Assembly: GCA_018655275.1 (NCBI GenBank)
Contig: JABIJZ010000010.1
Coordinates: 9,274 to 73,273 of the forward strand
Direction: 5' to 3'
From: Candidatus Peregrinibacteria bacterium
GTDB taxonomy: Bacteria > Patescibacteriota > Gracilibacteria > UBA1369 > LOWO2-01-FULL-3
DNA: 64,000 bases
Part shown: piece by piece, positions 12,007 to 44,372 of the stretch
Numbering within the stretch: position 1 is the stretch's first letter
Layout: the number at the start of each line of letters is the position of its first letter
The notes under the pieces: model-generated
What the model was told of the DNA's origin: nothing
Databases searched by the model: none
What the model saw: the letters and a program-made list of their open reading frames with translations, nothing else
Made by a program: the position numbers and the translations under genes

Positions 12007-12026
12007 GTGAACTCTAAAAACAAAGT

Positions 12027-13879: not shown

Positions 13880-13905
13880 AGTCTGGGTACATATATAGAG
13901 TTTGT

Positions 13906-13940
13906 GGTGCGCGGGGGTAGCAAAAAAGCTCCCGCGCACC
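13906..13940. terminator. GC-rich hairpin between convergent genes, a candidate bidirectional terminator
   Basis: GGTGCGCGGG (13906-13915) pairs with CCCGCGCACC (13931-13940), giving a 10-bp stem. It lies between the MFS stop and the rubrerythrin stop. Confidence 0.5.
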
Positions 13941-13996
13941 TTCTGATTGTAGTGAAACTTTTTACAGAGAGCGGGATTCCTTTTTTTGTCGTACGA

Positions 13997-14572
13997 CTAA
14001 TAATTATCTTCTTTTATTTGAAAGTGAGCTTGCGGATGCAAACAAGCAGGACATTCTTCTGGAGCAGAACTTCCCTCATGCAGATAACCACAATTCAAAC
14101 ATTTCCAAGTGATTTTGTCCTCTTTCACAAAAACATTCCCCTCATCAAGATTTTTATATAATTTTTTGTATCTTTCCTCATGAGCCTTCTCAACTTTCGC
14201 AATAAGAGTAAACACAGCCGAAATTTCCAAAAACCCCTCCTCTTTGGCAATTCGTGCAAATTCAGGATATAGATCTGTCCATTCTTCATTTTCTCCCTCA
14301 GCAGATTCCTTTAAATTCTCAAGAGTTGTTCCAATTTTTCCAGCAGGATAAGTAGCAGTTACTTCAACTGGGCCACCCTCCAAAAACTTAAAGAATCTTT
14401 TAGCATGTTCTTTTTCATTCAATGCAGTTTCCGCAAAAATAGCCGAAATTTGCTCCAATCCTTCTTTTTTTGCTTGTTTAGCAAAATAATCATAACGCAT
14501 TCTCGCTTGAGATTCTCCAGCAAAAGACTTTAATAAATTTTGTTCAGTTTTTGTGTCTTTTAAGGTTGGCAT
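13997..14572 (-). CDS. rbr: Rubrerythrin
   Basis: The N-terminal ferritin-like di-iron domain (EQNLLKSFAGESQARMRYDYFA...EKEHAKRF) is joined to a C-terminal rubredoxin-like CxxC...CxxC (KCLNCGY...ECPACLHP). Confidence 0.9.
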   Translation of the reverse strand: MPTLKDTKTEQNLLKSFAGESQARMRYDYFAKQAKKEGLEQISAIFAETALNEKEHAKRFFKFLEGGPVEVTATYPAGKIGTTLENLKESAEGENEEWTDLYPEFARIAKEEGFLEISAVFTLIAKVEKAHEERYKKLYKNLDEGNVFVKEDKITWKCLNCGYLHEGSSAPEECPACLHPQAHFQIKEDNY

Positions 14573-14679
14573 ATGATTTGTATTAATTATTTATTAGACT
14601 TTGGTCTTGATTTTATGAGCCTATACATCATACAATATACATGTATCAACATGAAAAAGGGTGCAAACGGGGTTAGTCC

Positions 14680-15186
14680 CTAAGCCACCTTTTTCTTTTT
14701 GTATTCAATTTTGCTCTTGATGTTATCAACATCTAAGGATACACAGTACTTATTCCCAAGACTTTTATAAAGCGATGATGCAAATTTTTTATTTGGGAAT
14801 AATATTTTCTCAAAACGATTTTTCTTGATTAAATAGTCGACAACTTTTTTATAATCCCCATCACCAGAAACAAGGAGCACTCTATCGAACTCCACATCAA
14901 TCAGAGCTCTCATTATTTCAAAAACAACATCAGTATCAACATTTCCTTTTTTCTTTCCCATTAATGATTTTGTATGCTCCTTAAAAACAACAATAAATCC
15001 GGCTTTTTGCAGTTCATTGTATAATTCTTGTTGTTCCTCAGAAAGATATCCAAAAAAGTAATAAGCCTCTACAACTTTATACTTATCTCTCAAATACACT
15101 CGAAATCGCTTGTAATTAACGCTCCAGTTACTTTCATTAGTTCCAAGGTGCAAATTTTGCCCATCAATAAAGGCTATATTTTTCAT
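14680..15186 (-). CDS. NYN-domain (LabA-like) protein
   Basis: The start IAFIDGQNLHLG and the later LLVSGDGDYKKVVDYL are characteristic NYN/LabA acidic motifs. Confidence 0.7.
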   Translation of the reverse strand: MKNIAFIDGQNLHLGTNESNWSVNYKRFRVYLRDKYKVVEAYYFFGYLSEEQQELYNELQKAGFIVVFKEHTKSLMGKKKGNVDTDVVFEIMRALIDVEFDRVLLVSGDGDYKKVVDYLIKKNRFEKILFPNKKFASSLYKSLGNKYCVSLDVDNIKSKIEYKKKKVA

Positions 15187-15207
15187 TACTATTTTAAATA
15201 ATTAATT

Positions 15208-15283
15208 TGGTGGGCCTGGAAGGATTTGAACCTTCGACCAATCGGTTATGAGCCGACTGCTCTAACCCCTGAGCTACAGGCCC
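15208..15283 (-). tRNA. tRNA with CAU anticodon, either elongator Met or lysidine-modified Ile2; not an initiator
   Basis: The reverse complement folds as a cloverleaf: GGGCCTG TA GCTC AGGGGTTA GAGC A GTCGG CTCATAA CCGAT TGGTC GAAGG TTCAAAT CCTTC CAGGCCC A CCA. CCA is encoded. The anticodon stem lacks the 3 G-C pairs of initiators. The anticodon arm and variable region resemble E. coli tRNA-Ile2 as I recall it. Confidence 0.9.
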
Positions 15284-15431
15284 GAGAGAGCAACAAGAGA
15301 AAAGTTATTTTCTCTTGGAGGCGAACGAGGGCATAGTGTCGCAAGACACAGGCCCAAATTTTGAAAGAACAAATAAACAACGAATATCGCCAAATAGATT
15401 AGCAAATTCTCTCCCGAATAAAAAGAAAAAT

Positions 15432-15800
15432 TTATTCCTTAGTCTCCTCAGCAACCTCTTTAACAGGTGTTTCCTTCACTTCAGGCTCAGCTTTTGCAGC
15501 TGTAGGTGCCTCTGCAGGAGCAGATTTTCCTCCTTTTTTCTCCAACTCATTTAAAGCTTGTGCAATCCGCGATTTCTTGTGAGCAGCATTCTTAGGATGA
15601 ATGATGTTTTTCTTTGCAGCCATGTCGATGATCTTGTAAGCAAAAGGCAAAAATTTCTGCGCTTCCGCAAGTTTCCCCTCCTTTACAAGTGTCAAAGCTT
15701 TTTTAACAGTAGTTTTCAATTCTGCACGAACAGGGAAATTTCGAGCTCGATTTCTCTTATTTTGTTTGAGCTGTTTCTTGGCTGATTTGATAATTGGCAT
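15432..15800 (-). CDS. rpsT: 30S ribosomal protein S20 with an Ala/Glu/Lys-rich C-terminal extension
   Basis: MPIIKSAKKQLKQNKRNRARNFPVRAELKTTVKKA is a classic S20 N-terminus. Confidence 0.85.
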   Translation of the reverse strand: MPIIKSAKKQLKQNKRNRARNFPVRAELKTTVKKALTLVKEGKLAEAQKFLPFAYKIIDMAAKKNIIHPKNAAHKKSRIAQALNELEKKGGKSAPAEAPTAAKAEPEVKETPVKEVAEETKE

Positions 15801-15895
15801 TGAATTTTCGTTAAAATAAATAAACTAAATAAACGCGAGATGAGTTTATGCAAATGAAACTCCCAAGTCAACCTATTATATGATAAAATCTCGGC

Positions 15896-16483
15896 ATGTA
15901 TCAGTTAGTTTTAGCCTCAAAAAGCCCTCGAAGAATAGAACTCCTAAAAGAACTAGGAGCCAATTTCACCACATACAGCTCAAATTTCGAAGAAATAACA
16001 GGAGAAACCGCGCCAGAAGGCCATACAGCCGAACAAATAGCCATCCACAACTCCCTGGGCAAGGCCAAAGAGGCATCAAACCACTTCAAAAACGCCCTAA
16101 TAATAGGAGTAGACACTGTAGGAGAGTCCCACGGCCACATCCTAGGCAAACCAAAAGACCGAGAAGACGCAAAACGCCTCATCAGGTTGATTTCAGGCAC
16201 AACCCACAAAGTGGTCTCAGCAATCACAATCATCAATACCGTTTCCGGCAAATCCACCTCCACCGTCACAGAAACCCTCGTCACAATGGAAAAAATGGAC
16301 GAAAAAGACATCGAAGCCTACGTCCAATCAGGAGAAGGCGACGACAAAGCCGCTTCATACGCTATTCAAGGAAAAGGCGCATTATTCGTCCAAAAGATAG
16401 AAGGGGACTACTTCAACGTGGTTGGCCTGCCAATCTACACCTTAAAAAAACTTTTGAGGGAATTTGGGGTTGAATTGATCTGA
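15896..16483 (+). CDS. maf: Maf-like nucleoside triphosphate pyrophosphatase
   Basis: LVLASKSPRRIELLKELG, GKAASYAIQG and VVGLP are Maf family motifs. Confidence 0.85.
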   Translation: MYQLVLASKSPRRIELLKELGANFTTYSSNFEEITGETAPEGHTAEQIAIHNSLGKAKEASNHFKNALIIGVDTVGESHGHILGKPKDREDAKRLIRLISGTTHKVVSAITIINTVSGKSTSTVTETLVTMEKMDEKDIEAYVQSGEGDDKAASYAIQGKGALFVQKIEGDYFNVVGLPIYTLKKLLREFGVELI

Positions 16484-30292: not shown

Positions 30293-30321
30293 TTTACCCA
30301 AACCTAAAAAAATGATATAAT
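30293..30321 (+). promoter_or_regulatory. Candidate promoter with extended -10 for the pilin-module/PKD locus
   Basis: TTTACC (30293-30298), a 17-nt spacer, then TGATATAAT (TATAAT at 30316-30321). Confidence 0.4.
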
Positions 30322-30345: not shown

Positions 30346-31401
30346 ATGCTAAAAAAGATTTTCAAATTCCTTCTGGAGGCCGGAGTAATAACAGGCCTAA
30401 TCTTAATGTTTATCCAAGTTCCAATCACATTGGCGGCAACAGCTCATTCCGCAACAACTGCGGCAATCGCAACAGAAACAGAAGTTCAAGACTCAATGCT
30501 TCTGGCGGCAACAACTTCAAAAACTTCAATCCCGTTGCCAGACGGCTCAAGGTACGAATACATTCCAACACCTGCCGCAGGGCAAACAGCCAAGCAAACA
30601 ATATCAGTAGTAATAGAGCAAGCGATAGGTTATTTCAAAATTCTGATAGGAGGTGTGGCGATAGGATTTATAATCTTTTCGGGAACAAGACTAGTGGTAT
30701 CAGGAGGGGACGAAGAGGCAATCAAAAAAGGAACAAAAGGACTTTTATTTAGTATAGCGGCCCTCGCGATAATTTCATTATCCGAAGAGGTCGGAGTTTT
30801 GGTCGGATTTTTCCAAGGGGAAACCCCGACAGGAGGTATAATCAAAAGCCCAGGAGAAATCTTGAGACGAGTACACATTTTCGATAGACAGGTGGAAATC
30901 GTAATGACATTTATAAAATACTTAATAGGATCGTTGGCAGTACTCATGATTGTAGTCAACGGAGTGAAGTTGGTGGTAGGTGGCGGTGAAGAAGAAAATA
31001 CAAAAAAGGCGAGGAACGGAGTTGTATACTCACTTCTTGGATTAGTTTTATTGGTTTTCGGAAGCACTTTGATCAATGACGTTTTCTACAAAGTGGACAA
31101 AAACGTCTACTCTGGAATGGAATCAGTTACGCCAACAGTAGACCTAGCAAGAGGTGTGAACGAAATAGTCGGTATCACGAACTTCATAGTAAGTTATGTA
31201 GGTCCGGTGCTCCTATTGTTATTGTTAATTGGAGGGGTTCTATACCTGACTTCGGGAGGGGAAGAAGAGAATATGAATAGAGCAAAAAGATTGATAATCG
31301 CGGCACTAATAGGTGTGGTCGTAATATATGGGGCGTTTGCTGTCGTGAGTACGATAGTCTCAGGCTCATTTTCTGCAACCGCAAATGAATTAATAACTTA
31401 G
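30346..31401 (+). CDS. Membrane protein with three tandem VirB2/TrbC-like (CPR T4SS-pilin-type) two-TM modules
   Basis: The modules lie at aa 93-147, 185-243 and 276-336. Each is hydrophobic helix - GG(D/E)EE..(K/R)KA(K/R) loop - hydrophobic helix, for example FIKYLIGSLAVLMIVVNGVKLVVGGGEEENTKKARNGVVYSLLGLVLLVF. Confidence 0.7.
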   Translation: MLKKIFKFLLEAGVITGLILMFIQVPITLAATAHSATTAAIATETEVQDSMLLAATTSKTSIPLPDGSRYEYIPTPAAGQTAKQTISVVIEQAIGYFKILIGGVAIGFIIFSGTRLVVSGGDEEAIKKGTKGLLFSIAALAIISLSEEVGVLVGFFQGETPTGGIIKSPGEILRRVHIFDRQVEIVMTFIKYLIGSLAVLMIVVNGVKLVVGGGEEENTKKARNGVVYSLLGLVLLVFGSTLINDVFYKVDKNVYSGMESVTPTVDLARGVNEIVGITNFIVSYVGPVLLLLLLIGGVLYLTSGGEEENMNRAKRLIIAALIGVVVIYGAFAVVSTIVSGSFSATANELIT

Positions 31402-31408
31402 CAGCCTA

Positions 31409-32452
31409 ATGAAAAACCAAATTAAAAAATGGACAAAAAGATTCGTAATAGCGTTTTTGCTAATAAATTTGGGCCTAACAACTTACACAACATATGCGGC
31501 AGATGATGAAGCAAATCCCGCGGACGCACCTCAAAGCATGGGAGAAATAGACCCAAGAATGGCGCCATCGGGACAATTGCTGGAAGTCGGAGGGAGTACA
31601 GGATTACCTGATTTTAATCTCGGTAGTGGGCAGCACCCGGATGCACCGACAGACGCTGAGTACGCAGGTGCGGGAACAATAGGAAGTGTGATTTATTTCT
31701 TGTTAGATTTGTTCAAATATCTGATGAGCGGTGTCGCGATAGTGATGATTATTGTGTATGCGATACGATTCATTGTTCAAGGAAGCAACGAAGAGGACAT
31801 AAAGAAAGTTCAGAAAGGGCTGGGAGTTTCGATCGCTGGATTGATAGTGATTCAGTTGGCAGACATATTGGTGAAACAGGTCTTCTTTGGAGATTACGGA
31901 GAAGTTTTGGAAGATAAAACGAGCGCTCAGATGTTTGCTGAAGCAGGAAGTGATCAAATCAGAGGCATCATAGGGTTCATCCAATTTGGACTCGGTGCAA
32001 TTGCGGTACTTATGATAATTATAAACGGACTCAGGATAATGGTTACAGGTATGAATGAAGAAGGAAGGAAAAAAGCTTTGAAAAACATCGGATTTGCTGT
32101 TGGAGGATTGATACTAATAGCATTGTCAGAGGTTGTAGTGAGAGCATTCGTATTTCCGGACCAAGGAGATTCACTGCCTTCAGTTGATGCTGGCCAGTCA
32201 TTGATAATGATGCTTACCAACTTTATATCCGGATTTGTGGCAGTACTTTCATTCGTGATGTTACTATACGCAGGATACCTATATGTAGTTGCGGGAACAG
32301 ACGACACAACAAAGGACAAAGTAAAAAAAATACTAACAGGCGCAATTATAGGAATTGTTTTATCATTGAGCGCCTATGCAATAACAAACACGCTGGTCAG
32401 GTTTGAAGAACCAAACGAATACATACCAGCCGGAGAAAATATTGTGAATTAA
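31409..32452 (+). CDS. Paralogous membrane protein with three tandem VirB2/TrbC-like two-TM modules
   Basis: Has a signal/anchor, then three modules: LFKYLMSGVAIVMIIVYAIRFIVQGSNEEDIKKVQKGLGVSIAGLIVI, FIQFGLGAIAVLMIIINGLRIMVTGMNEEGRKKALKNIGFAVGGLILI and FISGFVAVLSFVMLLYAGYLYVVAGTDDTTKDKVKKILTGAIIGIVLS. Confidence 0.7.
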   Translation: MKNQIKKWTKRFVIAFLLINLGLTTYTTYAADDEANPADAPQSMGEIDPRMAPSGQLLEVGGSTGLPDFNLGSGQHPDAPTDAEYAGAGTIGSVIYFLLDLFKYLMSGVAIVMIIVYAIRFIVQGSNEEDIKKVQKGLGVSIAGLIVIQLADILVKQVFFGDYGEVLEDKTSAQMFAEAGSDQIRGIIGFIQFGLGAIAVLMIIINGLRIMVTGMNEEGRKKALKNIGFAVGGLILIALSEVVVRAFVFPDQGDSLPSVDAGQSLIMMLTNFISGFVAVLSFVMLLYAGYLYVVAGTDDTTKDKVKKILTGAIIGIVLSLSAYAITNTLVRFEEPNEYIPAGENIVN

Positions 32453-32512
32453 TTTTGAAAATATCACTTAGGAATATATAATTAACAATTGAAATAAATA
32501 GCCTCATATACT

Positions 32513-35500
32513 ATGAAAAAAATCAAGAAACTCTTACTAGCCTTAGGAATCAGTTCAATGCTGCTAGCTGGGTCATCTTTGGTGTTAGAACAAGTCCCAA
32601 ACACAGCACATGCTGGAGACGATATCTGCTCAGATATCAGCTCAGGATTTTTCCAATGTCCTACAGATGAAATTTCCTTCACAAAATACACAGGAGAATT
32701 GGTAAAAATTAGCCCAGAAGGCTACGACCCAGGTTTAACCAGAACTGGAAGTGTCCGAGAATTCATCCAGAAAATCGTGAATTATGCTCTGTCCTTCCTA
32801 GGATTAGTGGCAGTACTCTTGATTATATACGCTGGTGCAATGTATTTGACGGCAGGAAGTAATCAAGAAAATTCAGACAAAGCAAAGAAGACAATAGGAT
32901 ACACAGCGGCAGGATTACTTTTGATAATGGCTTCATATGCCATCGTCAACACCATCCTCACAGGCCCATTCGAAGGTGATAGGGCTACAGAGGGGGCAGT
33001 AGGAGGGTTGGCAGCAGAAGGCTTCAATGTCCACACAAAAGACATCATAGCTTCTGCGGAAAACGTAGTAAAAAGCTACAAATACCTAATAGACGGAGCT
33101 GAAACATTGAAAGTTTTGACAGAAGATGCACAAAAATCGAGTTTGGGCGGCTCACAAGTCTACGATAGTGGAAGTGAATCAGCCAAGATTTTTGGGGAAA
33201 CTAGTTCTATACCAAAAGTATCAAGATCATCAGTTTTGCAATACCTTAACGGAGCAAAAACAAAACTTCAAAATCTAAGATACCAAGCTCCAACATTCTC
33301 AAGCATACCAGTAAAAATCAATTTTATTACAAGATACATCGACCAAAAAATCGATGAAATCGAAAGTTTAAACAAAGTCGAGTATTTCAACGCAGATGGG
33401 CTAACAGCAACTGCGGACAAAGAAAACGACGCCTTTCTATGGATCGACAAACAAATCGACAAATCCGGCAAAGACATCGTTCTATACAAAGACGATCCAG
33501 GTAGCGCGAAACATCCACATGGAATGTATGACTACAACGGTGACAAAAAAGCAAATCTATACGAAATTTGGGACCACATAAGAAAAGAATTAATAGATGG
33601 ATCTCTCGTAGACGGAGAAAATTATTCAATTGCAACTATCATGGGCGAAATGAAAAAAGAATTCGCAGGTCCAAGCGACAAATTAGAAGCAGGCGGCTAT
33701 TTCGACACAGTAAGTTGTTCAGCTGCAGGGACACCAAAAGTAGACTCAGAAGGCAAGGTTGTTCTTGACGCAAATGGCAACGTCACATGGGAAAAAGGAG
33801 GAGAACCTGCGGAAGGAATGTTAGCTAAACAATATTGTGTACTTAAGAATGTATATACAGAAATAAGCCGGTTGGATATTTTCCAAAACACAGTAATCCC
33901 ACAGCTATACAATACATTGAGTGCCTCATTTGATTTACTGGGACAAGAAGTGTGGAATGAGAATTTTATAGAAAATCCATCATTTGCAAACGAGCATTTG
34001 GTATCAATTATCCAGACCGAAGACGAGCTGGTAAAATCGATAAAAGACATCAAGTTTGTACAAACAAAACTTGTTGCAAGTACAGTAGAGGGTACATCTC
34101 CATTGATCGTGCATTTCGACGTATTGAACTCACAAGATCCGTCAGGGGAAGCAGTCACAGAAGAACGAATTGCTTGGGATTTAATGGGCGATGGATTTAA
34201 CACAGCAGACACAAGATGTTACTCAACTTTCAAGACTCCAGCTGAGGCAGATGAGTCAGACGGATTCCTGAATTATTGCGTGTACGACAGGCCGGGATTA
34301 TACAGAGCTACAGCCAAAATCCTTTCAAGCAATCCAGCAGAATACGCAGCTGGAATAAGCACAATTGATATCAAAGTCCGACCTCCTGACACATTGATCG
34401 CGCTTAGCGCATCTCACAACGGAGTGGCCGAGCCAATTTGGCTAATAGACTACGGAAAAGAAGGCGAGGATGGATACGAAGGAGTTTTGAGAACTTCAAA
34501 AGACTCAATCAAACTCCCACTAAAATTCGCAGAAGACCCCGGAATAACATTTAGTGCTAAAAGAACAGCGGATCTTGGAGGCCAAGGCGACGGACAAACA
34601 ATCATAAACTACAAATGGGATTTCGGAGATGGAACTTCGGAAGAAGGCCCAACAAAAATAGAAGTGGAAGACAAAGAATATGACAACGAAGGCGTCTACA
34701 CAGTGACTCTTGAAGTTGTCGAAGCAGACGGTAGCAGCGCAAGAAAGATGTTCAACGTAGTTGTTGGATCGCCAGCTGCACACATCAAAATGTCTCCAGG
34801 CAAAAAGACATTCAATCTTGGAGAGACAGCCTCATTCGACGCTTCACGATCATCAACTGACGAAGGAAAAATCACTTCATACGAGTGGGAGTTAACAAAA
34901 AAAGCAGTAACTTTGGACTCAAATGGCGATGCCATCGTTCCAAACGATAACGACACAGTGGAAACATATAATGAAGAAGCAGAGAAATCTTCAGAAAAAG
35001 TATTTAATCACAAATTCACAGAAACCGGTCTCTACAAAATAGAGCTTAAAGTAACTGATTCATTGGACAATACAGACGACATAGATGTCTCAGAAATACT
35101 TGTTGTTTCTCAGCCACCAGTGCCTCTGTTCTCATATACTGTGCCGGACAAAAACACTCCATCTGAGTACCATTTTGACTCTTCAAAAACATATGATCCA
35201 GACGGAGATATCGATACGGATAGTGTGATCAAATACAAATGGACAATCGAACCAAACACCGAAGACAAAGTCACAGTAGAAGGCGGAGAGACCTCTCTCT
35301 TAAAAGAAAATCCAATAGTAACTTTCGAAGAAGCAGGTGATTATAAAGTCACTTTGACAGTTTCAAACGACGAACCAAACTCAGAAGAAGTTTCACTAGA
35401 AAAAACACTCACAATCGAAAACGTCCTCGACGTAAAGTGGTCGAAACAATCAGGCGAAGAGCTTACAACTTCTACAATAATGCTGGACGAAGAAGGCAAA

Positions 35501-37540
35501 GCTGAAGTCACAGTCGCTTTCGAAAGCAAAAGAGCAATCGCCTACGAAGTTAATTTCGGAGACGGCGAAACATCTACAGGCGAGATCGAAAAAAACGGCG
35601 GCCCAACAAAAGCTTTCCACACATACAGAGAGTCAGGAAAATTCAACATAAAAGTTACAGTCTACGATGAGACTGACGCCTCAAATGACATAATCAGGAA
35701 AGTATTCGTGGGGAACGGAAAAAGCCCAGTGGCTAAGATAAAAGTATTTATAAATGGAGAGGAATACGTTGGATACGAAGAGCCTCTAATGATCAGCAGA
35801 GCGGACGTTATAACATTCGATTCTTCTGACTCAAAAAACACAGACGGAACAGGCAGAGACTTGAAATACGTTTGGGATTTCGGAGACGGGGACAAAAGTA
35901 CAAAAAGAACAGTCTTCCACAAATTCGACGAAGTCAGCCCAACTCCTCCAGGATTTTATTGGGTAAAATTAATCATTTACGACAAAGACGATCCAACTCC
36001 AAGTCTAGACGACCTTGAGGAAGGAAAAACAGAAAAAGGCGACCTAGCCAAATTGAAGATAAACGTGGAACCAAAAGACCCACAATTCTCTTCACTACAA
36101 GCAATTCCAGCAATGGGAGAAGACTTGGTAACGCCAGTGGGAGTTAACCTTTCTGTATACGGTGCAAAAGACCCAGACGGGAAAATCACCCAATACAAAT
36201 GGTGGTACTACGACATCGAAAATGCTGACGAAGAGCTAGGACTTCAAGTTACACAGTCACCAACAGCAGCCATAACAATAGGTACAAACGGTGAAGAAGG
36301 AGAGCCAAAAACATACAGATTTGGTGTCGCAATTACAGATAACGAAAACAACACAGTAATGTCAGAAGGTGCAGACGACGAAGACAAGAATCAGCTTCCA
36401 CAAAACATGATTCCGGAGCAAGACGTGACGAACGGACCAAATTCAGTGCCTCTTGCGAAATTCTCAGTAGACAGAACAAAAGTCTTCGCGGGCGATCCAG
36501 TTAACTTCTCATCAAGCTCAAAAGACAAAGACGGTAAAATCGCAGAATACATTTGGGATTTCAAAGGAGACGGATTCTTCAATGACGCAGGGAAGCCAGA
36601 ATACAACAAAGCAACAGTCTCATACACATACGACGAGAAAAATCTAAACGGATACAAAGTTCGACTGAAAATTGTGGATAACGAAGGCGCAGAAGCTGTA
36701 TCTCAGCCAATTAGCGTGTTCATAGACTCAAATGCAAATCCACCAAAAGCGGCGTTCAAACACGAAGTCATAGGTGGTAAAACAGTCCAATTCACAAACA
36801 ATTCAGAAGCTGACTCAGAAGCCGACGCATCAATAAAAGAATACAAATGGGATTTCGACATCGCTTCTCAGTTCGATTCAGCCGATGCAGATGGCGACGG
36901 AACAAAAGACAACGATTTCGAATCTGATGAGAAAAATCCGACATTCACATACGATGAATTCGGAATCTATCAAGTAAAATTGACAGTCAAAGACGACAAA
37001 GGAAACGTTGAGTCAGTTACCAATATGGTGAACGTAACAGCCCTCTCAGGACCTGGAAGTGCAAGCGGCGGAACAATGGGCGACAGCCTACTTGGCACAC
37101 CAGCAGGCGGAACATCAACGCAAGATCCTCTGACACTAACAGGAGGAACTACATTAGGAGGTCTAGACGCTGAGCCAGGCGCAGGAATTGGCACATCAGC
37201 TGGCGCAGGAACAACTTTGTCAGGACTTCAAGCAATATTGATTTCAAACCCACTTCCAAATAATCAAGGAGTGGTAGCTCTTCCAGGAGACGCAGGCGAA
37301 ATCACTTTCGATTTCTCTCAATCAAACGGAAATATCGCATACTATATATTAGATAAAAATATTTATTTCGACACAAACGGTGACGGAATGAAAAACAATG
37401 ACGCAGATTTCAAAACTAGTCTTCCCGGACAATGGACTACCAATTTTGAGGAAGAATGGGGTAAGATCGTAGTAAAGTTAACCGTGACTGATTTGGATGG
37501 AAATTCTCATTCAACAGTACAAGAAGTCACATTTAAATAA
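32513..37540 (+). CDS. Giant (1675 aa) surface protein: signal peptide, one VirB2/TrbC-like two-TM module, then about 10 PKD-type Ig repeats
   Basis: The N-terminal module is at aa 83-150 (IVNYALSFLGLVAVLLIIYAGAMYLTAGSNQENSDKAKKTIGYTAAGLLLIMASYAIV). PKD signatures recur: WDLMGDGF, WDFGDGTSEEG, VNFGDGETS, WDFGDGDKS, WDFKGDGFF, YKWDFD, each followed by Y.V.L.V.D. Confidence 0.8.
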   Translation: MKKIKKLLLALGISSMLLAGSSLVLEQVPNTAHAGDDICSDISSGFFQCPTDEISFTKYTGELVKISPEGYDPGLTRTGSVREFIQKIVNYALSFLGLVAVLLIIYAGAMYLTAGSNQENSDKAKKTIGYTAAGLLLIMASYAIVNTILTGPFEGDRATEGAVGGLAAEGFNVHTKDIIASAENVVKSYKYLIDGAETLKVLTEDAQKSSLGGSQVYDSGSESAKIFGETSSIPKVSRSSVLQYLNGAKTKLQNLRYQAPTFSSIPVKINFITRYIDQKIDEIESLNKVEYFNADGLTATADKENDAFLWIDKQIDKSGKDIVLYKDDPGSAKHPHGMYDYNGDKKANLYEIWDHIRKELIDGSLVDGENYSIATIMGEMKKEFAGPSDKLEAGGYFDTVSCSAAGTPKVDSEGKVVLDANGNVTWEKGGEPAEGMLAKQYCVLKNVYTEISRLDIFQNTVIPQLYNTLSASFDLLGQEVWNENFIENPSFANEHLVSIIQTEDELVKSIKDIKFVQTKLVASTVEGTSPLIVHFDVLNSQDPSGEAVTEERIAWDLMGDGFNTADTRCYSTFKTPAEADESDGFLNYCVYDRPGLYRATAKILSSNPAEYAAGISTIDIKVRPPDTLIALSASHNGVAEPIWLIDYGKEGEDGYEGVLRTSKDSIKLPLKFAEDPGITFSAKRTADLGGQGDGQTIINYKWDFGDGTSEEGPTKIEVEDKEYDNEGVYTVTLEVVEADGSSARKMFNVVVGSPAAHIKMSPGKKTFNLGETASFDASRSSTDEGKITSYEWELTKKAVTLDSNGDAIVPNDNDTVETYNEEAEKSSEKVFNHKFTETGLYKIELKVTDSLDNTDDIDVSEILVVSQPPVPLFSYTVPDKNTPSEYHFDSSKTYDPDGDIDTDSVIKYKWTIEPNTEDKVTVEGGETSLLKENPIVTFEEAGDYKVTLTVSNDEPNSEEVSLEKTLTIENVLDVKWSKQSGEELTTSTIMLDEEGKAEVTVAFESKRAIAYEVNFGDGETSTGEIEKNGGPTKAFHTYRESGKFNIKVTVYDETDASNDIIRKVFVGNGKSPVAKIKVFINGEEYVGYEEPLMISRADVITFDSSDSKNTDGTGRDLKYVWDFGDGDKSTKRTVFHKFDEVSPTPPGFYWVKLIIYDKDDPTPSLDDLEEGKTEKGDLAKLKINVEPKDPQFSSLQAIPAMGEDLVTPVGVNLSVYGAKDPDGKITQYKWWYYDIENADEELGLQVTQSPTAAITIGTNGEEGEPKTYRFGVAITDNENNTVMSEGADDEDKNQLPQNMIPEQDVTNGPNSVPLAKFSVDRTKVFAGDPVNFSSSSKDKDGKIAEYIWDFKGDGFFNDAGKPEYNKATVSYTYDEKNLNGYKVRLKIVDNEGAEAVSQPISVFIDSNANPPKAAFKHEVIGGKTVQFTNNSEADSEADASIKEYKWDFDIASQFDSADADGDGTKDNDFESDEKNPTFTYDEFGIYQVKLTVKDDKGNVESVTNMVNVTALSGPGSASGGTMGDSLLGTPAGGTSTQDPLTLTGGTTLGGLDAEPGAGIGTSAGAGTTLSGLQAILISNPLPNNQGVVALPGDAGEITFDFSQSNGNIAYYILDKNIYFDTNGDGMKNNDADFKTSLPGQWTTNFEEEWGKIVVKLTVTDLDGNSHSTVQEVTFK

Positions 37541-37554
37541 ATAACCTTATTTCT

Positions 37555-39711
37555 ATGTTCAGTTTGCCTGACAAAAAACCAGTCAAGGCCTCTGAGAAAT
37601 TAGCGGCAAAGCCGCAAGCGCAAGAAGCGGCGAAACCGCAAGAAGCGCCACTTCTCAAGCCCCAAGAACAAGCAAAACCAAAATCAAAATTCAAAGAAAC
37701 TTTAACATTAGTAGGCGCAATATTAGGCGGACTTTCTGCCCTATACCTAGCCTTTACTTTTTATGTGATCGGAACCGCTAAAGAGGGCACAGAGCTCTCA
37801 ATCATCGGAGCTGGAACTCCAGCCTTCCTGAACGGATTAGTTGTTGGAGTATACATCGTATTATTCTTGGCAGCATTGGTCACATGTGTATGGGTTATCA
37901 TACCACTTTTCAAGATGCTTTTGGCGAAGAAAGAAGAAGTTGATAAGAAGAAAAAAGCAAAAAAACACGTGATAATCGCTGGAATCTTGTTGGGAGTACT
38001 TTTGATCGCATGGGGAACTGCATTTGTTTATTTGGAAAATAGAAGAGATGTTTTGAAAATAAACGTAGTTCATGCACCGATCGAAACTGAACCTTCAGAC
38101 ACACTTCAATTATCAGCTCCAGTTACAATAAAATTTGACGCAACTCACGCTGAAATAGATCCACAAAACTATAGAGTAGTTCTATATAATTGGGATTTTG
38201 GCGACGAAGAATCAGAAATCGGAGACGCGATAGTAACCCACGAATTCACACAAAAAGGAAGTTACATCGTCACATTAACAATCGAAAAAAGAAACGTCCA
38301 CACAGGAGAAACAGCAAAAGACACCCACACAAAAGAAGTCTCAATCACAAACCAATCTCTAACGGCAGCATTCACAGTCGAGCCACAAGCCGGGGAAGCA
38401 CCATTAGAAGCCATTTTTGACGCTTCTGATTCGATAGACCCAGACGGGAGAATCGGGAAATACGAATGGGACATCGACGGAGACGGCCAATTCGAAGAAG
38501 AATACGAAAACCAAATCACGGTTGAACACACTTTCGAAAAAATTGGAAACTACGAAGTTTTCCTAAGGATTACTTCATTAACAGGTGAAGATTACGAAAC
38601 AACAAAGAAGCAAGTTATCGTCACAAAAGGCGAAACACCCGCCGCAATAATCGAAGTACAAGGTGAACCTGCAACATACGAAACAGGCGTATCTTATATA
38701 TTTAAAGGCGGCGAATCAGTTTCCCCAAACGGAGACATCCTAGCTTATTCATGGGATTTCGATGATGGCTCAGCAATAGAAGATACAAAAACTGTTAGCC
38801 ACACATTCGACACAGAAGGTGTATACAACGTAATCCTGACCGTCACAGACGAGGAAGACAAAGAAGGAGAATCATTACTCGAGATAGTGATAGGAACAAA
38901 GCCTGGTACACCTCAAGCAAAAATGACTACAGATCCGGCTTTGGAGGACGGAGCACTAGCAATAGTAGGAGATTCTCCACTCACAATTTCCTTTGATGGA
39001 AGCGTATCAACAGACTCAGACGAAAATATCCTCGAATATGAATGGGATTTTGATAACGATGGTGAGGTCGATGAGTATGGCAAAAAATCAAGCCATACAT
39101 ATATAAAGGAGGGGACACACACCGCAAGACTTACAGTCACAGATGCTGACAACAACGTAGGAACAACAACAATTGGAATACAAGTATCAACTCCAGGAAT
39201 CAAAGCAAAATTAACAGCTGAACCAATCAACGGAGAAGTTCCATTAACAGTTAAATTTGACTCTACCGGGTCATCTCATCCAGGAGCTGAGATATCTAGC
39301 TACAAATGGGATTTCGGAGATGGAACAAGCCCAACCTTGGGTTCAGGCAAAATCAGCCACAAATACATAGAAATCGGAGAATATACAGCGATCGTCACAG
39401 CAATCGGTAGTGACAACACAAAAGCAACTGAAGAAGTTTATATAACTGTAAGGGCAGTCCAGGTTTCAGCTTGTTTCGATGCTTCACCCAAAACAGGTGT
39501 AGCACCTCTAAAAGTAAGTCTAGATCCAGATTGTAGTACAGGTACAATTACAGGTTATAACTGGGCATTTGGAGACGGTTCAAGTGCAGCAGAAGTCAAA
39601 CCTGAACACGAGTTCGACAAACCAGGAGTTTACCCTGTCACACTCGAGGTATCAGACAACGACAACAACGTATCGAGCACAACAATGAATGTCACAGTTA
39701 CAGCAGAATAG
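37555..39711 (+). CDS. Membrane-anchored protein with about 7 PKD domains
   Basis: A Lys/Pro/Gln/Ala-rich N-terminus is followed by three TM segments. PKD motifs then follow: WDFGDEESE, WDIDGDGQFE, WDFDDGSA, WDFDNDGE, WDFGDGTSP and WAFGDGSSA. Confidence 0.8.
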   Translation: MFSLPDKKPVKASEKLAAKPQAQEAAKPQEAPLLKPQEQAKPKSKFKETLTLVGAILGGLSALYLAFTFYVIGTAKEGTELSIIGAGTPAFLNGLVVGVYIVLFLAALVTCVWVIIPLFKMLLAKKEEVDKKKKAKKHVIIAGILLGVLLIAWGTAFVYLENRRDVLKINVVHAPIETEPSDTLQLSAPVTIKFDATHAEIDPQNYRVVLYNWDFGDEESEIGDAIVTHEFTQKGSYIVTLTIEKRNVHTGETAKDTHTKEVSITNQSLTAAFTVEPQAGEAPLEAIFDASDSIDPDGRIGKYEWDIDGDGQFEEEYENQITVEHTFEKIGNYEVFLRITSLTGEDYETTKKQVIVTKGETPAAIIEVQGEPATYETGVSYIFKGGESVSPNGDILAYSWDFDDGSAIEDTKTVSHTFDTEGVYNVILTVTDEEDKEGESLLEIVIGTKPGTPQAKMTTDPALEDGALAIVGDSPLTISFDGSVSTDSDENILEYEWDFDNDGEVDEYGKKSSHTYIKEGTHTARLTVTDADNNVGTTTIGIQVSTPGIKAKLTAEPINGEVPLTVKFDSTGSSHPGAEISSYKWDFGDGTSPTLGSGKISHKYIEIGEYTAIVTAIGSDNTKATEEVYITVRAVQVSACFDASPKTGVAPLKVSLDPDCSTGTITGYNWAFGDGSSAAEVKPEHEFDKPGVYPVTLEVSDNDNNVSSTTMNVTVTAE

Positions 39712-39724
39712 TCCCACTCAGGGA

Positions 39725-39753
39725 TTGATAAAAAACCTTAGATATGTTATAAT
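39725..39753 (+). promoter_or_regulatory. Candidate strong sigma70-type promoter
   Basis: TTGATA (39725-39730), a 17-nt spacer, then TATAAT (39748-39753), upstream of the 39811 gene. Confidence 0.5.
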
Positions 39754-39810: not shown

Positions 39811-42800
39811 ATGGAGGAAAAGATATACCCTTTACAGGTAGCTCAATCCAAGGAAATCAAATCCTTGATGACCAAAAAGGCCAAAAAGCCTGGCTTCAAG
39901 GACTGGATAAAAGGCCGAAAAAGCATGGTCATTGCAGTATCTGTAGTGGCACTTTTGGCTTTAGGAACAGTAATGTACGCAAGTGGATTGGGAGGGAGCT
40001 TGATGGGTTTGTTAGGGGATGATGCAGCTTCATTAACTGCTGTGCCAGAACAATTTAAACCATCATCTAACCAAAGTGTCGAAATCCAATACACTCTTCC
40101 AGCTGAATTCGGCACAGCATATGGCCTTCCAACAGAAGAAGCAACAGTAACTCTAAAAATATTAGATCCAGATGGCACCGAAATTAAAAAATTTGAGAAA
40201 TTGCAAGCTACAAACACAGGCAGTTTTATATGGGGTGAGTCAGGCGAGCTAGAGTCTCTCTCTTCTGGGGAATACACATTATTCTTGAACGCATATGGAG
40301 GTCAAGGTACAGGTGTTGCTATAACTGCTTTCGAGACAATAACGGTTTTAGAAAAGACGGCAATAGAAGGTACAGCAGGAACAGCAGACCCAAAAACAAC
40401 TATTTCAGTAAATGTGGTGCCGGAGGAGTTTACACCATCAGAAGACGAAGAAGTTGAAATCCAATACTCACTTCCAGATGGATTTGGTGAGGCATCGGGT
40501 CCTTTAACATCAACAGTAACAGTAACTCTGGAAATATTAGGTCCAAGTGATAACAACATCTTAACTACATCGGAACCTTCAAGCCCAGGTATCTTCACAT
40601 GGGCTGGCTCAATTGGGGCAAATTATGTCTCACCTGGGGAATATTCAGTAAACTTAACCGCAACTGCAAACACAGGTGGTTTTGCATATGGTTCAACAAC
40701 TATGACAGTACTGGCAGCGGCGGAAACAGCAACAGCAGCTATTGAGCCACTAGCCTTAAATCTAGAGCTGGACAAAGCTACAATTTTAGAAGGAGAAGGA
40801 ATGGGCATAAATATAAATCCAACTCAATCTCTGTCTTTACATGAGATTCTTATAAAAAACAGTTCTGGGGCTTTAGTATTTTCTATACTAAAAAATAATT
40901 CAGAAGAGAACACCACAGGTAGTTATGCCTGGGATGGGAAAGATAGAAATGGGGAGTTTCTAGAAGTAGGTGTTTATAAAGTGGTCGTCACAGGAAAAGC
41001 TGCAGCAGGAGGTGAAGAAAAAACAGAAGAAAAAGCATTCACTATAACGGAACCAACACCAGGCTCAATCACAGTCTGGACAGAACCAGACACCATATGG
41101 CTCCCTGGGGAGATAACTGTCAAATGGGAAACAGAAGGGGACGTAAAACCAATAACCAATATAGAAATTTGGCATAGATACGGGATAGGAGGTCAAACAA
41201 TGGTAGCAAATCCAGGCTATCCTATTGAATGTTCAGAAAACATTTGTTCAAAAACATGGTTATGGGAAGAAACTGATGACACTGCGATTGAAACAGGGGC
41301 ATATTTTGTAGTAGTTGAAGATGAAAATGGAGTTAAAGGCCAAAGTGAAGATTTTCAAGTAAAAAAAACTTTAACCATAAATCTAAGCAAATACCAAGTA
41401 GAAGAAGGTGAAGGTTTCGAAATACAATTATCAACAGCTCCAAGGGGAACAATAACAGTATATGATCTAGCAATCGTAAGAGAGGATGGGTCTTTAGTTA
41501 ACAACCTAGTTCCAGGCACAGGGTCAATAACAGTGTCAGGAGAAACAACAGAGACAGTAATCTGGGATGGAACGATAGACCAAAGGGAACAGGGAACAGA
41601 TCCAGTAATAGCGGCTCCAGGCAATTATAAAGTTAGATACAAGCTAACATCAAAAGGTGATACTTATGAATACATTCCTTTCACAATCGTAGAAGAAGTA
41701 GTAATGGGGGTAACCATTGAGCCTTCAGGTTCAATAGAAATTTATGAAAGTGAAACAGTTTTTTTCATAGCTTTCATAAAAAACGGACAGAGCCCTTTGA
41801 CATTCGATATAAACTATGGAGATGGAGAGGAGGAGTCAATATCTTCAAACCAGGGAATGATAGACTTCTTTCACGAATTTTCATTACCTCCTAATACAAC
41901 CACAGAAACTTATACAGTCACAGTGGAAGTTACAGATGTTGAAGGGAAAATAGCCTCAATAGAAAAGCAAGTAACAGTAAACAAAAACGATTACCAAATC
42001 ACTATCAATTCAACTCCTCTTGCTCAACAATATCAAGATCAACCAGTAAATATAGCAGTTGCAGTGACAGACGGTCAAACACCGTACAACCTGTTAGTTG
42101 ATTATGGTGATGGCAGCCAAAAGGAAGCAAGAATGAATGTAGGTTCTGGTGTAGAATCTCATGATTTTACACACACATACGCAGAACCAGAAGTTTATAC
42201 ACAAACATTCACAGTAAATAAAGATGGTATAGGTGAAAAAGTAGCAACAAGAACATACACAATCCTAGAATCAAATGAAAATAAAACAGATCCTTTATTG
42301 TTCGATAAACTCACAATAGATCCTCCATTTCAACAAACAGTAGGCGGAGATGTAAGTATCACCGCAAAAGTAATAGGAGGCTCAGGAGAATACAATTACA
42401 CTTACTACAGCTCAGTTGCACCTGATCCATTTGCATTGGGGGCGAATTCATACGTTAAGGCCAAAGAAGACTTATTTGTAGTTAATGATTTCCCGATTGG
42501 AAACTATTCTATCTATGTAGAAGTTCAAGACGTAAACAACCCAGATACAATAGTAAAGTCCATCATATCAGCATACAAAATAGTATCCGTCGAAGAAAAT
42601 CCTTTAACATCAGTAGCCATTACAGCAGCCCCTCCAGGCCAACAAACATTAAATGGAGACGTCACAGTAACTGCAACTGCTACAGGAGGTTCAGGTAAAT
42701 ACAACTACACATACAAAGACGAAATGCCTAACGCAGTAGGTTTAATTCATCAAAATGTTGAAAACAATACAGATTCAAATATATTCCAACCTTTAAATGC

Positions 42801-43683
42801 AGGGGTTCATACTTTTTCTGTAACCGTAAGAGATGTAGAAACAGAAATAGAAATAAAAGAAACCATTACCTATACAATGGTGGAAGCAGACAACACAGCC
42901 AAAGCTTGCGCGAACGGAGTAGACGATGATGGTGACGGAAAAATCGATGCATACGACCCAGGTTGCGATTCCGACCAAGATGACGACGAACACAATACCG
43001 TTGACGACAACAACAATAACAATAACTATAACAACAACAACGACTACGAAATCTGCTCAAATGGAAAAGACGACGACGGAGACGGCAAAGTCGATTACCT
43101 CGACTCAGACTGTAAACTCCCAAAGAGTGCAGTGATGGACGTATACAACGCGACAGCTTCACCAAAATCATTCAACCCACACGTATACTCAAGCAAGATA
43201 AGTTGGTGGATGGACAAAGACGCATACGTTGACGTTGTAATAGAAGATCCACAAAGCAGCCTAGTTATTCAATTAGTAGACAATAAACTTCTAGACGATG
43301 GCTTCAACGAAGTTTGGTGGGAAGGAACAAAAGACAATAAAACAACAGGAACAATAGTTCCAGACGGAACATACAACTACGTAATAACAGCTACAAACAA
43401 AAAATACGAAACAGTCTCAGACACTCAAGAAGGAGTTATCACAGTTAGCACCTCAGACGGAGCTACTGGCGCACAAACTCAAGACATCGAAGACGTAAAC
43501 ACCGGCGGTGGAACAAGCGGTGTTGCTAGTGGAACAACAGGCGGTCAAACAACATTTGACCAAATCGCCCAAGCTTCAATGCAAAATGCACAAGCCGGCG
43601 AAACTGCAGGCACAGGTCCTGGAATCTTAGTATACTTCTTATTCCCATTATTTGCTTTCGCATTTAATCGGATTAAATCTTAA
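39811..43683 (+). CDS. Large (1290 aa) surface protein: N-terminal anchor, Ig-like/FlgD-Ig-like/PKD-like repeats, two Cys-bounded DDDGDG motifs, poly-Asn, C-terminal TM plus basic tail
   Basis: N-terminal TM is MVIAVSVVALLALGTVMYA. Repeats have the pattern VEIQY(T/S)LP..FG. Also present are YGDGEEES/YGDGSQKE PKD-like cores and CANGVDDDGDGKIDAYDPGC plus CSNGKDDDGDGKVDYLDSDC. A FlgD-Ig-like domain (FNEVWWEGTKDN..VPDGTYNYVITA) follows. The protein ends in GTGPGILVYFLFPLFAFAFNRIKS. Confidence 0.75.
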   Translation: MEEKIYPLQVAQSKEIKSLMTKKAKKPGFKDWIKGRKSMVIAVSVVALLALGTVMYASGLGGSLMGLLGDDAASLTAVPEQFKPSSNQSVEIQYTLPAEFGTAYGLPTEEATVTLKILDPDGTEIKKFEKLQATNTGSFIWGESGELESLSSGEYTLFLNAYGGQGTGVAITAFETITVLEKTAIEGTAGTADPKTTISVNVVPEEFTPSEDEEVEIQYSLPDGFGEASGPLTSTVTVTLEILGPSDNNILTTSEPSSPGIFTWAGSIGANYVSPGEYSVNLTATANTGGFAYGSTTMTVLAAAETATAAIEPLALNLELDKATILEGEGMGININPTQSLSLHEILIKNSSGALVFSILKNNSEENTTGSYAWDGKDRNGEFLEVGVYKVVVTGKAAAGGEEKTEEKAFTITEPTPGSITVWTEPDTIWLPGEITVKWETEGDVKPITNIEIWHRYGIGGQTMVANPGYPIECSENICSKTWLWEETDDTAIETGAYFVVVEDENGVKGQSEDFQVKKTLTINLSKYQVEEGEGFEIQLSTAPRGTITVYDLAIVREDGSLVNNLVPGTGSITVSGETTETVIWDGTIDQREQGTDPVIAAPGNYKVRYKLTSKGDTYEYIPFTIVEEVVMGVTIEPSGSIEIYESETVFFIAFIKNGQSPLTFDINYGDGEEESISSNQGMIDFFHEFSLPPNTTTETYTVTVEVTDVEGKIASIEKQVTVNKNDYQITINSTPLAQQYQDQPVNIAVAVTDGQTPYNLLVDYGDGSQKEARMNVGSGVESHDFTHTYAEPEVYTQTFTVNKDGIGEKVATRTYTILESNENKTDPLLFDKLTIDPPFQQTVGGDVSITAKVIGGSGEYNYTYYSSVAPDPFALGANSYVKAKEDLFVVNDFPIGNYSIYVEVQDVNNPDTIVKSIISAYKIVSVEENPLTSVAITAAPPGQQTLNGDVTVTATATGGSGKYNYTYKDEMPNAVGLIHQNVENNTDSNIFQPLNAGVHTFSVTVRDVETEIEIKETITYTMVEADNTAKACANGVDDDGDGKIDAYDPGCDSDQDDDEHNTVDDNNNNNNYNNNNDYEICSNGKDDDGDGKVDYLDSDCKLPKSAVMDVYNATASPKSFNPHVYSSKISWWMDKDAYVDVVIEDPQSSLVIQLVDNKLLDDGFNEVWWEGTKDNKTTGTIVPDGTYNYVITATNKKYETVSDTQEGVITVSTSDGATGAQTQDIEDVNTGGGTSGVASGTTGGQTTFDQIAQASMQNAQAGETAGTGPGILVYFLFPLFAFAFNRIKS

Positions 43684-43706: not shown

Positions 43707-44372
43707 ATGACTGATGAAAATACAACATTGCCACCAGAAGACCTAAATAAAGGTACTGAAGGCGAGGCACCAAAAACTGAAGCTCCAGCGGAAACACCCG
43801 TGGAAGCACCTGCTACACCAGCTGAAGCTCCGGTTGAAGCTCCAACAGCAACTGTCGAAACACCAGCAGAAACACCTGCTGCAGAACCAGCAGCTGACAT
43901 CGAAGTAAAACCAGCTGAGCCAGAAGTGCCAGCTGTCGAACCAGCGGCAACTCCAGAGGCACCTGCTGTGGAAGCGCCAGCTAAACCAGCTGAAGCACCA
44001 GCTCCAACTCCGGAAGCACCTGCTGCGGCAACTCCAGTCGAAACTGAAGCATCTGTTGACGCTCCTGCGCCAACTCCAGATGCTCCAGCAGTCGAAAGCT
44101 TGCTAGAACCAACAGAAGAACAAAAAGAAGAAGAAAGTTTCTTCAAGAAAAACAAACTTCTTTTAATAGGCGGAGTAATCGGGATTATCCTGATCGCAGT
44201 CACTGTAGGTGTTCTCTTGAGCTACAAAGATTCTGAAAATCTTGAAGGAATGATCAACAAGGTTATGCAGGAACAAGAAGCAGAGCAGATGACAGCACAA
44301 TCAGAAGCTGCTATTCAAGAAGCATTGGAGGAAGAAGCACCGAGAGGAAAAGTTAAAGTGAATATCAACTAA
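43707..44372 (+). CDS. Pro/Ala/Glu/Thr-rich low-complexity protein with a single TM segment
   Basis: About 130 aa of (P-A-E/T-x) repeats (APAETPVEAPATPAEAPVEAP...), then LLLIGGVIGIILIAVTVGVLL and a short charged tail. The antisense ORF 43673..44203 is a compositional shadow. Confidence 0.55.
   Translation: MTDENTTLPPEDLNKGTEGEAPKTEAPAETPVEAPATPAEAPVEAPTATVETPAETPAAEPAADIEVKPAEPEVPAVEPAATPEAPAVEAPAKPAEAPAPTPEAPAAATPVETEASVDAPAPTPDAPAVESLLEPTEEQKEEESFFKKNKLLLIGGVIGIILIAVTVGVLLSYKDSENLEGMINKVMQEQEAEQMTAQSEAAIQEALEEEAPRGKVKVNIN

Follow-up and report, generated by a model that had tools for sequence, protein, structure and literature searches.

VirB2-like pilins have recently been recognized as widespread in Patescibacteria and as essential in one case, and what they build in wall-bearing monoderm cells is a standing question. 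A stretch of 64,000 nucleotides of Candidatus Peregrinibacteria bacterium (GenBank assembly GCA_018655275.1, contig JABIJZ010000010.1, positions 9,274 to 73,273 of the forward strand), hereafter the window, raises this question in a particular form: two adjacent open reading frames (ORFs), A and B, each encode three pilin-like two-helix hairpins in one polypeptide, and the ORF that follows, C, places one such hairpin in front of a giant extracellular region. The question is whether the chains of A and B are cut into single pilins, an option raised when the sequence was first read (the original prediction), or are used whole, and in what structure.

Three-hairpin chains and their conserved linkers

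A and B were each shown to contain three separate stretches matching the Pfam family T4SS_pilin (PF18895), with total scores of 72.2 bits (E 3.7e-20) and 74.4 bits (E 7.7e-21), respectively, and C a single N-terminal one (aa 79-148, E 9e-10; 38.9 bits, or 34.6 bits in the full-length scan). All three exceed the gathering cut-off of 26.6 bits, and as judged by these profile scores, which lie well above threshold, the membership of the module in PF18895 is solid. A hidden Markov model (HMM) built from a seven-module MAFFT alignment (A1-A3, B1-B3, and C1), referred to below as the module HMM, placed the modules as follows.

30346..31401, + strand: ORF A, 351 aa; predicted signal peptide aa 1-30 (TLA/A), then three PF18895 hairpins
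30598..30813, + strand: module A1, aa 85-156; module HMM E 3e-25; own position class in 68 of 68 genomes (see below)
30874..31089, + strand: module A2, aa 177-248; module HMM E 7e-30
31150..31359, + strand: module A3, aa 269-338; module HMM E 7e-27
31409..32452, + strand: ORF B, 347 aa; predicted signal peptide (TYA/A), three PF18895 hairpins; the paralogue of A
31676..31888, + strand: module B1, aa 90-160; module HMM
31943..32155, + strand: module B2, aa 179-249; module HMM
32186..32398, + strand: module B3, aa 260-330; module HMM
32513..37540, + strand: ORF C, 1675 aa; predicted signal peptide (AHA/G), one PF18895 hairpin, giant acidic extracellular region with at least six PKD domains
32750..32959, + strand: module C1, aa 80-149 by module HMM; 34% identity to A3 and 31.5% to B3

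Aligned in register, A and B share 31% identity across 254 aa (E 2.6e-38) and are hence paralogues. They also aligned when shifted against each other by one and by two modules (E 3.8e-16 and 2e-6), by which the internal repeat is proven, and the module of C aligned with all six modules of A and B. The original prediction had described A and B as paralogous tandem triplications of a two-helix module, with three, three, and one copies in the ORFs starting at 30346, 31409, and 32513; the alignments, the PF18895 matches, and the module HMM bore out both the paralogy and the counts, with module ranges close to those first proposed. Its consensus for the seven modules was likewise reproduced by MAFFT (lead-in F-I, G.VA.LMII..G, turn G..EE, KKA.K, and GL.LI), in which one Gly is the only strictly invariant column. 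When all ORFs of the window were searched with the module HMM, no other strong module was found.

Hydropathy analysis revealed, in A and in B, an N-terminal signal-like segment and six transmembrane-like segments, in agreement with the six transmembrane helices per chain that had been anticipated. The leaders of A, B, and C are basic and then hydrophobic and end at a small-x-small site, as judged from hydropathy and inspection of the sequence, and a variable, gappy low-complexity stretch lies between the leader and the first module in both A and B. The turns between the helices are 12 aa long and dense in Lys and Arg (GG-EE-x-KKAK). An AlphaFold2 (AF2) model of A based on a 68-sequence alignment (predicted local distance difference test score, pLDDT, 75.2; predicted template modeling score, pTM, 0.53) contained six helices of 30-43 aa arranged as three hairpins (82-118/123-152, 169-211/216-247, and 267-302/307-342), and A3 modeled singly also formed a helical hairpin (pLDDT 85.9). 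Given a cleaved leader, the hairpins are predicted, on the basis of their sequence and the VirB2 paradigm, to run outside-inside-outside, with the Lys/Arg-rich turn in the cytoplasm and the linkers and the PKD region of C on the extracellular side.

The arrangement was found to be fixed over a deep divergence. Homologues of A in a collection of 5.8 billion proteins (n = 69, 270-389 aa) all belonged to PF18895 and all had exactly three modules in register; their source labels were Gracilibacteria or Patescibacteria, and one was named 'pilin'. The GTDB representative genomes yielded 121 relatives, and the locus counts given here cover 80 of these, nearly all labeled Peregrinibacteria or Peribacteria and with A homologues down to ~34% identity. 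In 68 of the 80 loci the + strand carries a three-module ORF, a second three-module ORF, and, as the orthologue of C, a one-module ORF of ~1400-2000 aa, and in most of the other loci a contig end or fragmented ORFs visibly interrupt the set. In three of the related loci (L001, L004, and L006), in which A is 62%, 60%, and 41% identical to that of the window, the order is SecE-NusG (divergent), A, B, C, and a ~725-aa protein with ~6 PKD domains. The seven module positions are distinct orthologous classes that are not interchangeable: all 476 modules of the 68 complete loci had their top cross-genome BLAST match in their own position class, and in a four-genome comparison modules at the same position were 45-65% identical, against 16-34% between positions. 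In that comparison A1 paired with B1 and A3 with B3, and C1 was nearest to the third modules, which indicates that the triplication is older than the duplication that gave rise to A and B.

Measured between full module spans in the 68 loci, the linkers had median lengths of 16 aa for A1-A2 (range 16-33), 19 aa for A2-A3 (17-22), 17 aa for B1-B2 (16-20), and 10 aa for B2-B3 (9-10). The linkers of 35-45 aa first proposed were thus not recovered, the actual 10-19 aa being due to the amphipathic lead-in, which counts as part of the module. Linker columns were almost gapless, with conservation scores of 0.53-0.59 as compared with 0.53-0.72 for the helices and 0.29-0.35 for the C-terminal tails, and the N-terminal variable regions of A and B were gappy across the loci. 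Conserved motifs were apparent in the linkers of both A (VFY.VDK..Y.G..GV.P..D...G) and B (FFG..GE and FP..G...P). The linkers are hence conserved to the same degree as the helices, and their length is nearly invariant.

PKD-repeat partners and a model of the assembly

The invariant neighbor of the two chains is the PKD protein C, in which ~1500 aa of PKD repeats follow the hairpin; a word-indexed homologue search with its N-terminus returned only 3 matches. A further PKD protein, D, lies immediately downstream.

37555..39711, + strand: ORF D, 718 aa; K/P/Q-rich cytoplasmic tail, transmembrane segment at aa 49-74, probable divergent hairpin, six PKD domains
37837..38028, + strand: probable divergent eighth hairpin in D, aa 95-158; module HMM 15.5 bits, hhalign

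An hhalign comparison of the D N-terminal profile with the module profile (probability 75%, E 2.5e-5) aligned both helices and the turn KKEEVDKKKKAKKH, and on this profile evidence aa 95-158 of D likely represent an eighth, divergent module. Both PKD proteins of the operon thus appear to share one type of anchor, the pilin-like module, in a 3+3+1+1 set. D was found to be conserved 3' of C in L001, L004, and L006, where it is followed by large ORFs.

We propose that A and B would be exported by the Sec pathway, lose the N-terminal signal peptide, and each persist as a single uncleaved membrane chain of three VirB2-like hairpins, in which both ends of every hairpin lie outside, the acidic/basic turn (GG-EE...KKAK) lies in the cytoplasm, and short extracytoplasmic linkers of fixed length join one hairpin to the next. 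The six hairpins would pack beside the N-terminal hairpin of C, and probably also the divergent hairpin of D, and the resulting hetero-oligomer would be pilus-like, of fixed stoichiometry, and rooted in the membrane. It may anchor the PKD-repeat arms and display them on the surface, where they would presumably attach the cell to others. That A and B are such uncleaved concatenated pilins, co-assembling with the hairpin of C and probably that of D into a membrane-rooted, PKD-arm-bearing structure, has in our judgment about an even chance of being correct.

Several observations weigh against this model. The pTM of the whole-chain AF2 model was only 0.53, so the packing between hairpins is not confidently predicted; the functional tie of A and B to C and D consists of conserved gene order only; and homology to true conjugative pilins (VirB2/TrbC) is borderline by sequence comparison, as detailed in the next section. 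In addition, several modules have a small-x-small motif ~15 hydrophobic residues past the basic patch (I-S-x-S followed by E in A1; A-F/Y-A in A3, B3, and C1), and to the eye these motifs resemble a signal-peptidase I site.

The last of these points bears on the polyprotein reading, according to which signal peptidase I or some other protease of the envelope would cleave each chain at or close to its linkers and release three different single-hairpin pilins in equal numbers. Helix 2 is indeed laid out like a signal peptide, with a basic n-region, a hydrophobic core, and the small-x-small motif; VirB2/TrbC pilins undergo N- and C-terminal processing; and a conserved linker sequence is what would be expected of a cleavage site. 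However, the hydrophobic helix runs on for 8-12 residues beyond the candidate site, the linker is conserved over its whole extent rather than at a short site, and its length is nearly invariant, B2-B3 measuring 9-10 aa in 68 genomes. Moreover, module number and order have stayed frozen over a divergence that takes A homologues to ~34% identity, and no protease domain was detected by Pfam in the operon proteins scanned. These sequence features disfavor cleavage of A and B into pilin units, which we consider quite improbable.

Chains of the same kind outside the 3+3+1 set were informative on this point. A search of 1.84 billion cluster representatives with the seven-module profile retrieved 46,781 proteins at E <= 1e-3, and the best 150 of these contain 2-8 modules per chain, among them P0073 (820 aa, 8 modules), P0076 (606 aa, 7 modules), and P0074 (552 aa, 6 modules). 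The assertion that such pilins are normally single-module proteins therefore stood for the classical VirB2/TrbC proteins but failed more broadly, since chains of 2-8 modules are widespread in metagenomes. Gene arrays also encode the same module in single-hairpin form, as proteins of ~105-135 aa, and in two loci (L094 and L098) multi-module chains lie within classical pilin gene arrays. Two further six-module chains (P0143 and P0152) have another turn motif (DDPGAR/EDPGAR) and Cys-rich C-terminal extensions, and may belong to a separate branch of multi-hairpin proteins.

PKD proteins accompany these chains repeatedly. In L095 an 8-module chain is found together with a 155-aa pilin, a 383-aa pilin-PKD fusion, and a 718-aa PKD protein, and in L097 a 7-module chain is followed by an 803-aa PKD protein, with a VirD4-type coupling protein (type IV coupling protein, T4CP; PF02534/TrwB_AAD_bind), a DPBB_1 protein, and a PG_binding_1 protein 4-6 kb away. 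Using the T4CP of L097 as a probe, we collected 80 Peribacteraceae loci. The syntenic order is T4CP, peptidoglycan-binding (PG-binding) gene, pilin gene, and PKD protein homologue; the last lies directly 3' of the pilin gene in most of the loci where a pilin gene is present. The state of the pilin gene at this T4CP-linked position varied.

One module: 33 loci
Two modules: 6 loci
Three modules: 3 loci
Five modules: 1 locus
Seven modules: 1 locus
Three separate single-module genes: 2 loci (L122 and L137)

The three single-module genes of L122 are consecutive at the syntenic position, and one of those in L137 lies ~1.3 kb from the other two. In L099, modules 1-6 are mutually 60-79% identical and the last module is ~40% identical to them; judged from such module identities, the T4CP-linked chains are the product of recent intragenic amplification. 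A gene-fusion ('Rosetta stone') relationship, in which the three genes would equal one three-module gene, was considered for this locus and rejected, because no one-to-one orthology was found module by module. Single genes, tandem genes, and chains are instead alternative expansion states of one locus. That one gene, three tandem genes, and 2-7-module chains share the same position suggests that linkage may not matter for function, which speaks for the polyprotein reading, while chains in which only 2-5 residues separate the module envelopes (as in L173) leave scant room for an excisable spacer and speak against it. Two regimes are thus distinguished, namely a plastic, recently amplifying T4CP-linked chain and, in the window, an ancient 3+3+1 set that has stayed frozen.

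Relation to conjugative pilins and other membrane proteins

The pilin-like character claimed for the modules was upheld by PF18895, as described above, whereas the link to VirB2/TrbC proved weak. With PF04956 (VirB2/TrbC), A and B gave no match even at E <= 1, and the module of C scored 26.1 bits against a cut-off of 27.9. An hhalign comparison with eight annotated VirB2/TrbC sequences, taken from conjugative plasmids on which their genes are located between virB1 and virB3, produced a 62-column co-linear alignment extending from the lead-in to helix 2 (E 0.003, probability 10%). Foldseek searches with a single module returned generic helical hairpins, all at E > 1; the Aeropyrum pernix conjugation pilin 8dfu ranked sixth (TM-scores 0.55/0.60) and was the only near-full-length small target among these matches, none of which was significant. 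A search of PDB sequences with the module profile gave only chance matches to GPCR4 (E ~0.4).

In their features, A, B, and C share with classical VirB2/TrbC/TraA proteins a long leader, two hydrophobic helices, a short charged turn, and the predicted ends-out/loop-in topology. They differ in that classical VirB2/TrbC proteins form a single hairpin of ~100-120 aa, as compared with three hairpins in 351 and 347 aa for A and B, and are encoded within type IV secretion system (T4SS) operons next to virB1 and virB3, whereas no T4SS genes lie near A, B, and C. A VirB2-like hairpin from a monoderm lineage, the Mbov_0395-family pilin-like protein of the Mycoplasma integrative and conjugative element (ICE; NF045849), matched A, B, and C at E 6e-8 to 2.5e-7; these matches of 30-32 bits remain under the 40-bit cut-off, and the Mycoplasma protein, which comes from an ICE, has one module, unlike the chromosomal multi-module chains of A and B.

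A close likeness was found with the patescibacterial PF18895 pilin arrays, which comprise 2-11 genes whose paralogues average 25% identity and have been read as variants that may differ in antigenicity or host range (Quinonero-Coronel et al. 2025, PMC12102498). The six-gene pilin array of Southlakia epibionticum is essential (reviewed in PMC12857230). A, B, and C belong to the same Pfam family and phylum, have divergent paralogues side by side and a predicted signal peptide followed by the hairpin, and, with gaps of 7 and 60 nt, form an array as defined by at least two divergent PF18895 genes in tandem or one gene apart. The 16-34% identity between module positions is likewise to be set against the mean of 25% within the published arrays (PMC12102498). 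The published arrays, however, consist of separate genes, whereas the paralogues of A and B are joined in one polypeptide (3+3), and the set of the window further differs from them in the lineage-wide freezing of number and order and in the coupling to giant PKD proteins bearing the same hairpin. While arrays are located near virB4 in 1135 of 1948 assemblies (PMC12102498), no VirB4 occurs with this set in 64 kb. Chains of frozen number, order, and linker length provide natural evidence that divergent paralogues function side by side in a defined geometry, and paralogues welded in this manner argue against the published suggestion of antigenic or host-range variation. Intragenic multi-module pilins were not found described in the full texts searched; as the coverage of this search was incomplete, 'undescribed' is provisional.

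Concatenation of this type has an architectural analogue. In the proteolipid c-subunits of A/V-type ATPases, small two-helix membrane hairpins that as a rule come together as individual subunits can be covalently joined, with two, three, or as many as thirteen per chain. By analogy, the two-helix hairpins of A and B may have been concatenated by intragenic duplication in a way that fixes stoichiometry and neighbor order, although the c-subunits differ in the loop motif and have an ATPase as partner, as opposed to the PKD surface proteins here. Homology to the ATP synthase c-subunit (PF00137) was rejected on the basis of a Pfam scan, which gave no ATP-synt_C match at E <= 1.

A different origin altogether would make A and B an unrelated six-transmembrane protein, such as a transporter, a channel, or cytochrome bd subunit II, whose pilin resemblance reflects convergent hydrophobic helices. 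Sub-threshold Pfam matches to Cyt_bd_oxida_II (PF02322) and TctB and the failure of the fold searches to recover any pilin significantly would fit this idea, as would the JGI name 'cytochrome bd-type quinol oxidase subunit 2' carried by two homologues. The PF02322 match, found in B and absent from A, covers a partial profile at 22.7 bits, 13 bits under its cut-off of 35.6, whereas PF18895 lies ~45 bits over its own; no CydA is encoded nearby or elsewhere in the window, and cytochrome bd subunit II was rejected as a candidate. Whole-chain Foldseek against the PDB brought up no six-transmembrane family and nothing significant (best E 0.13), so the better match to an unrelated six-transmembrane family that the original prediction had named as the outcome to watch for did not appear. 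The occurrence of the same module in the ~105-135-aa array proteins and at the N-termini of the PKD giants also argues against this origin, which we regard as highly improbable. The two homologues with the JGI name are three-module chains (P0004 and P0013), and the name is likely a misannotation.

If the modules are pilins, A and B might serve an extended T4SS-type pilus as covalent pilin trimers that a VirB4/T4CP machinery encoded elsewhere draws out of the membrane and polymerizes, with C (and D) as minor adhesin-bearing pilins. In support of such a fiber, the module belongs to a family annotated as T4SS pilin, its helices of 30-43 aa exceed a plain transmembrane span, the Saccharibacteria pilin arrays are essential and T4SS-linked (PMC12857230, PMC12102498), and the Peribacteraceae pilin/PKD pair lies 4-6 kb from the VirD4-type T4CP and PG-binding proteins. 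Furthermore, the metagenome-assembled genome Go_SlDig_bin_464 has the 3+3+1 operon on one contig (L048), and a second contig (L177) encodes a T4CP, whose PF02534 match exceeds the threshold, paired with a PG_binding_1 gene in a DnaE/AspRS housekeeping context with no pilin genes nearby; a T4SS component may thus act in trans. On the other hand, Pfam scans found no VirB4, VirD4, VirB6, or relaxase domain in the window, tblastn with a Peregrinibacteria T4CP found no match there, and no T4SS gene was found within 10 kb at L001, L004, and L006, the related loci inspected. VirB6 homologues are absent in the class Gracilibacteria according to the cited survey. The extra N-terminal transmembrane segment and the cytoplasmic tail of D are hard to fit with extraction into a fiber, and a stoichiometry frozen at 3+3+1 is more in keeping with a defined complex than with open-ended polymerization. 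An extended T4SS-type pilus is for these reasons unlikely in our view. A keyword search of a genome paper on Peribacteria (PMC4736985) turned up reports of type II secretion, type IV pili, and large proteins of the cell exterior, and no mention of a T4SS.

Returning to the membrane-rooted assembly, we tentatively suggest a wider reading, in which concatenated pilins of 2-8 hairpins would be an unrecognized class across Patescibacteria and the 3+3+1(+1) set of Peregrinibacteria would build a surface organelle with a core of pilin hairpins and arms of giant PKD-repeat adhesins, assembled without a canonical T4SS; this is possible, if somewhat doubtful. Were it true, episymbiotic bacteria would have adopted the conjugative-pilin fold as an all-purpose means of fixing adhesins to the membrane or to a filament, and the paralogues of the arrays would be obligate co-assembling partners and not antigenic variants. 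The recurrent fusion or pairing of hairpins with PKD proteins, along with the coupling ATPase and PG-binding neighbors elsewhere, points to a testable host-attachment model for uncultivated episymbionts.

Neighboring genes, promoter-like sites, and the rest of the window

Downstream of D the following co-directional ORFs were found, and a promoter-like site precedes A.

30293..30321, + strand: promoter-like site TTTACC-17-TATAAT, TG-extended, 25 nt 5' of the ATG of A; consensus match only
39811..43683, + strand: ORF E, 1290 aa; N-terminal transmembrane segment, FlgD_ig/PKD-like domains, hydrophobic C-terminal tail
43707-44372, + strand: ORF F, Pro/Ala/Glu-rich, single transmembrane segment; co-directional with the operon

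The intergenic gaps from A through F measure 7, 60, 14, 99, and 23 nt in order. E gave a weak CHU_C match, and its hydrophobic C-terminal tail PGILVYFLFPLFAFAFNRIKS resembles a sorting or anchor signal; as a co-directional neighbor, it is an uncertain member of the system. The best 3 sigma-70-like matches on the + strand (30293-30321, 32455-32482, and 39725-39753) lie directly 5' of A, C, and E, positions that hint at transcription units A-B, C-D, and E-F, although the total number of such matches in the region showed no excess over the shuffled expectation and the promoter/terminator scan was at chance overall.

The window is otherwise an ordinary stretch of chromosome, encoding SecE, NusG, and L1, purine and histidine biosynthesis, ThyX and pyruvate formate-lyase, a RuBisCO homologue, and SLH-domain proteins. 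The 526-aa ThyX (1537-3120, - strand) has two Thy1 (PF02511) stretches and appears as an internally duplicated flavin-dependent thymidylate synthase. A sharp shift in G+C content (12001-16000), which may mark foreign DNA, separates 12-14 kb (0.48), where a major facilitator superfamily (MFS) transporter gene lies, from 14-16 kb (0.36); the background is ~0.41. A 488-aa protein encoded at 60886-62352 has two His_biosynth stretches, as if HisA and HisF had been fused, and its gene belongs to a complete his operon, an unusual biosynthetic capacity for a genome of the candidate phyla radiation (CPR). Finally, a 430-aa RuBisCO large-subunit homologue is encoded at 50497-51792 on the - strand, which would fit the nucleotide-salvage type reported in CPR bacteria.

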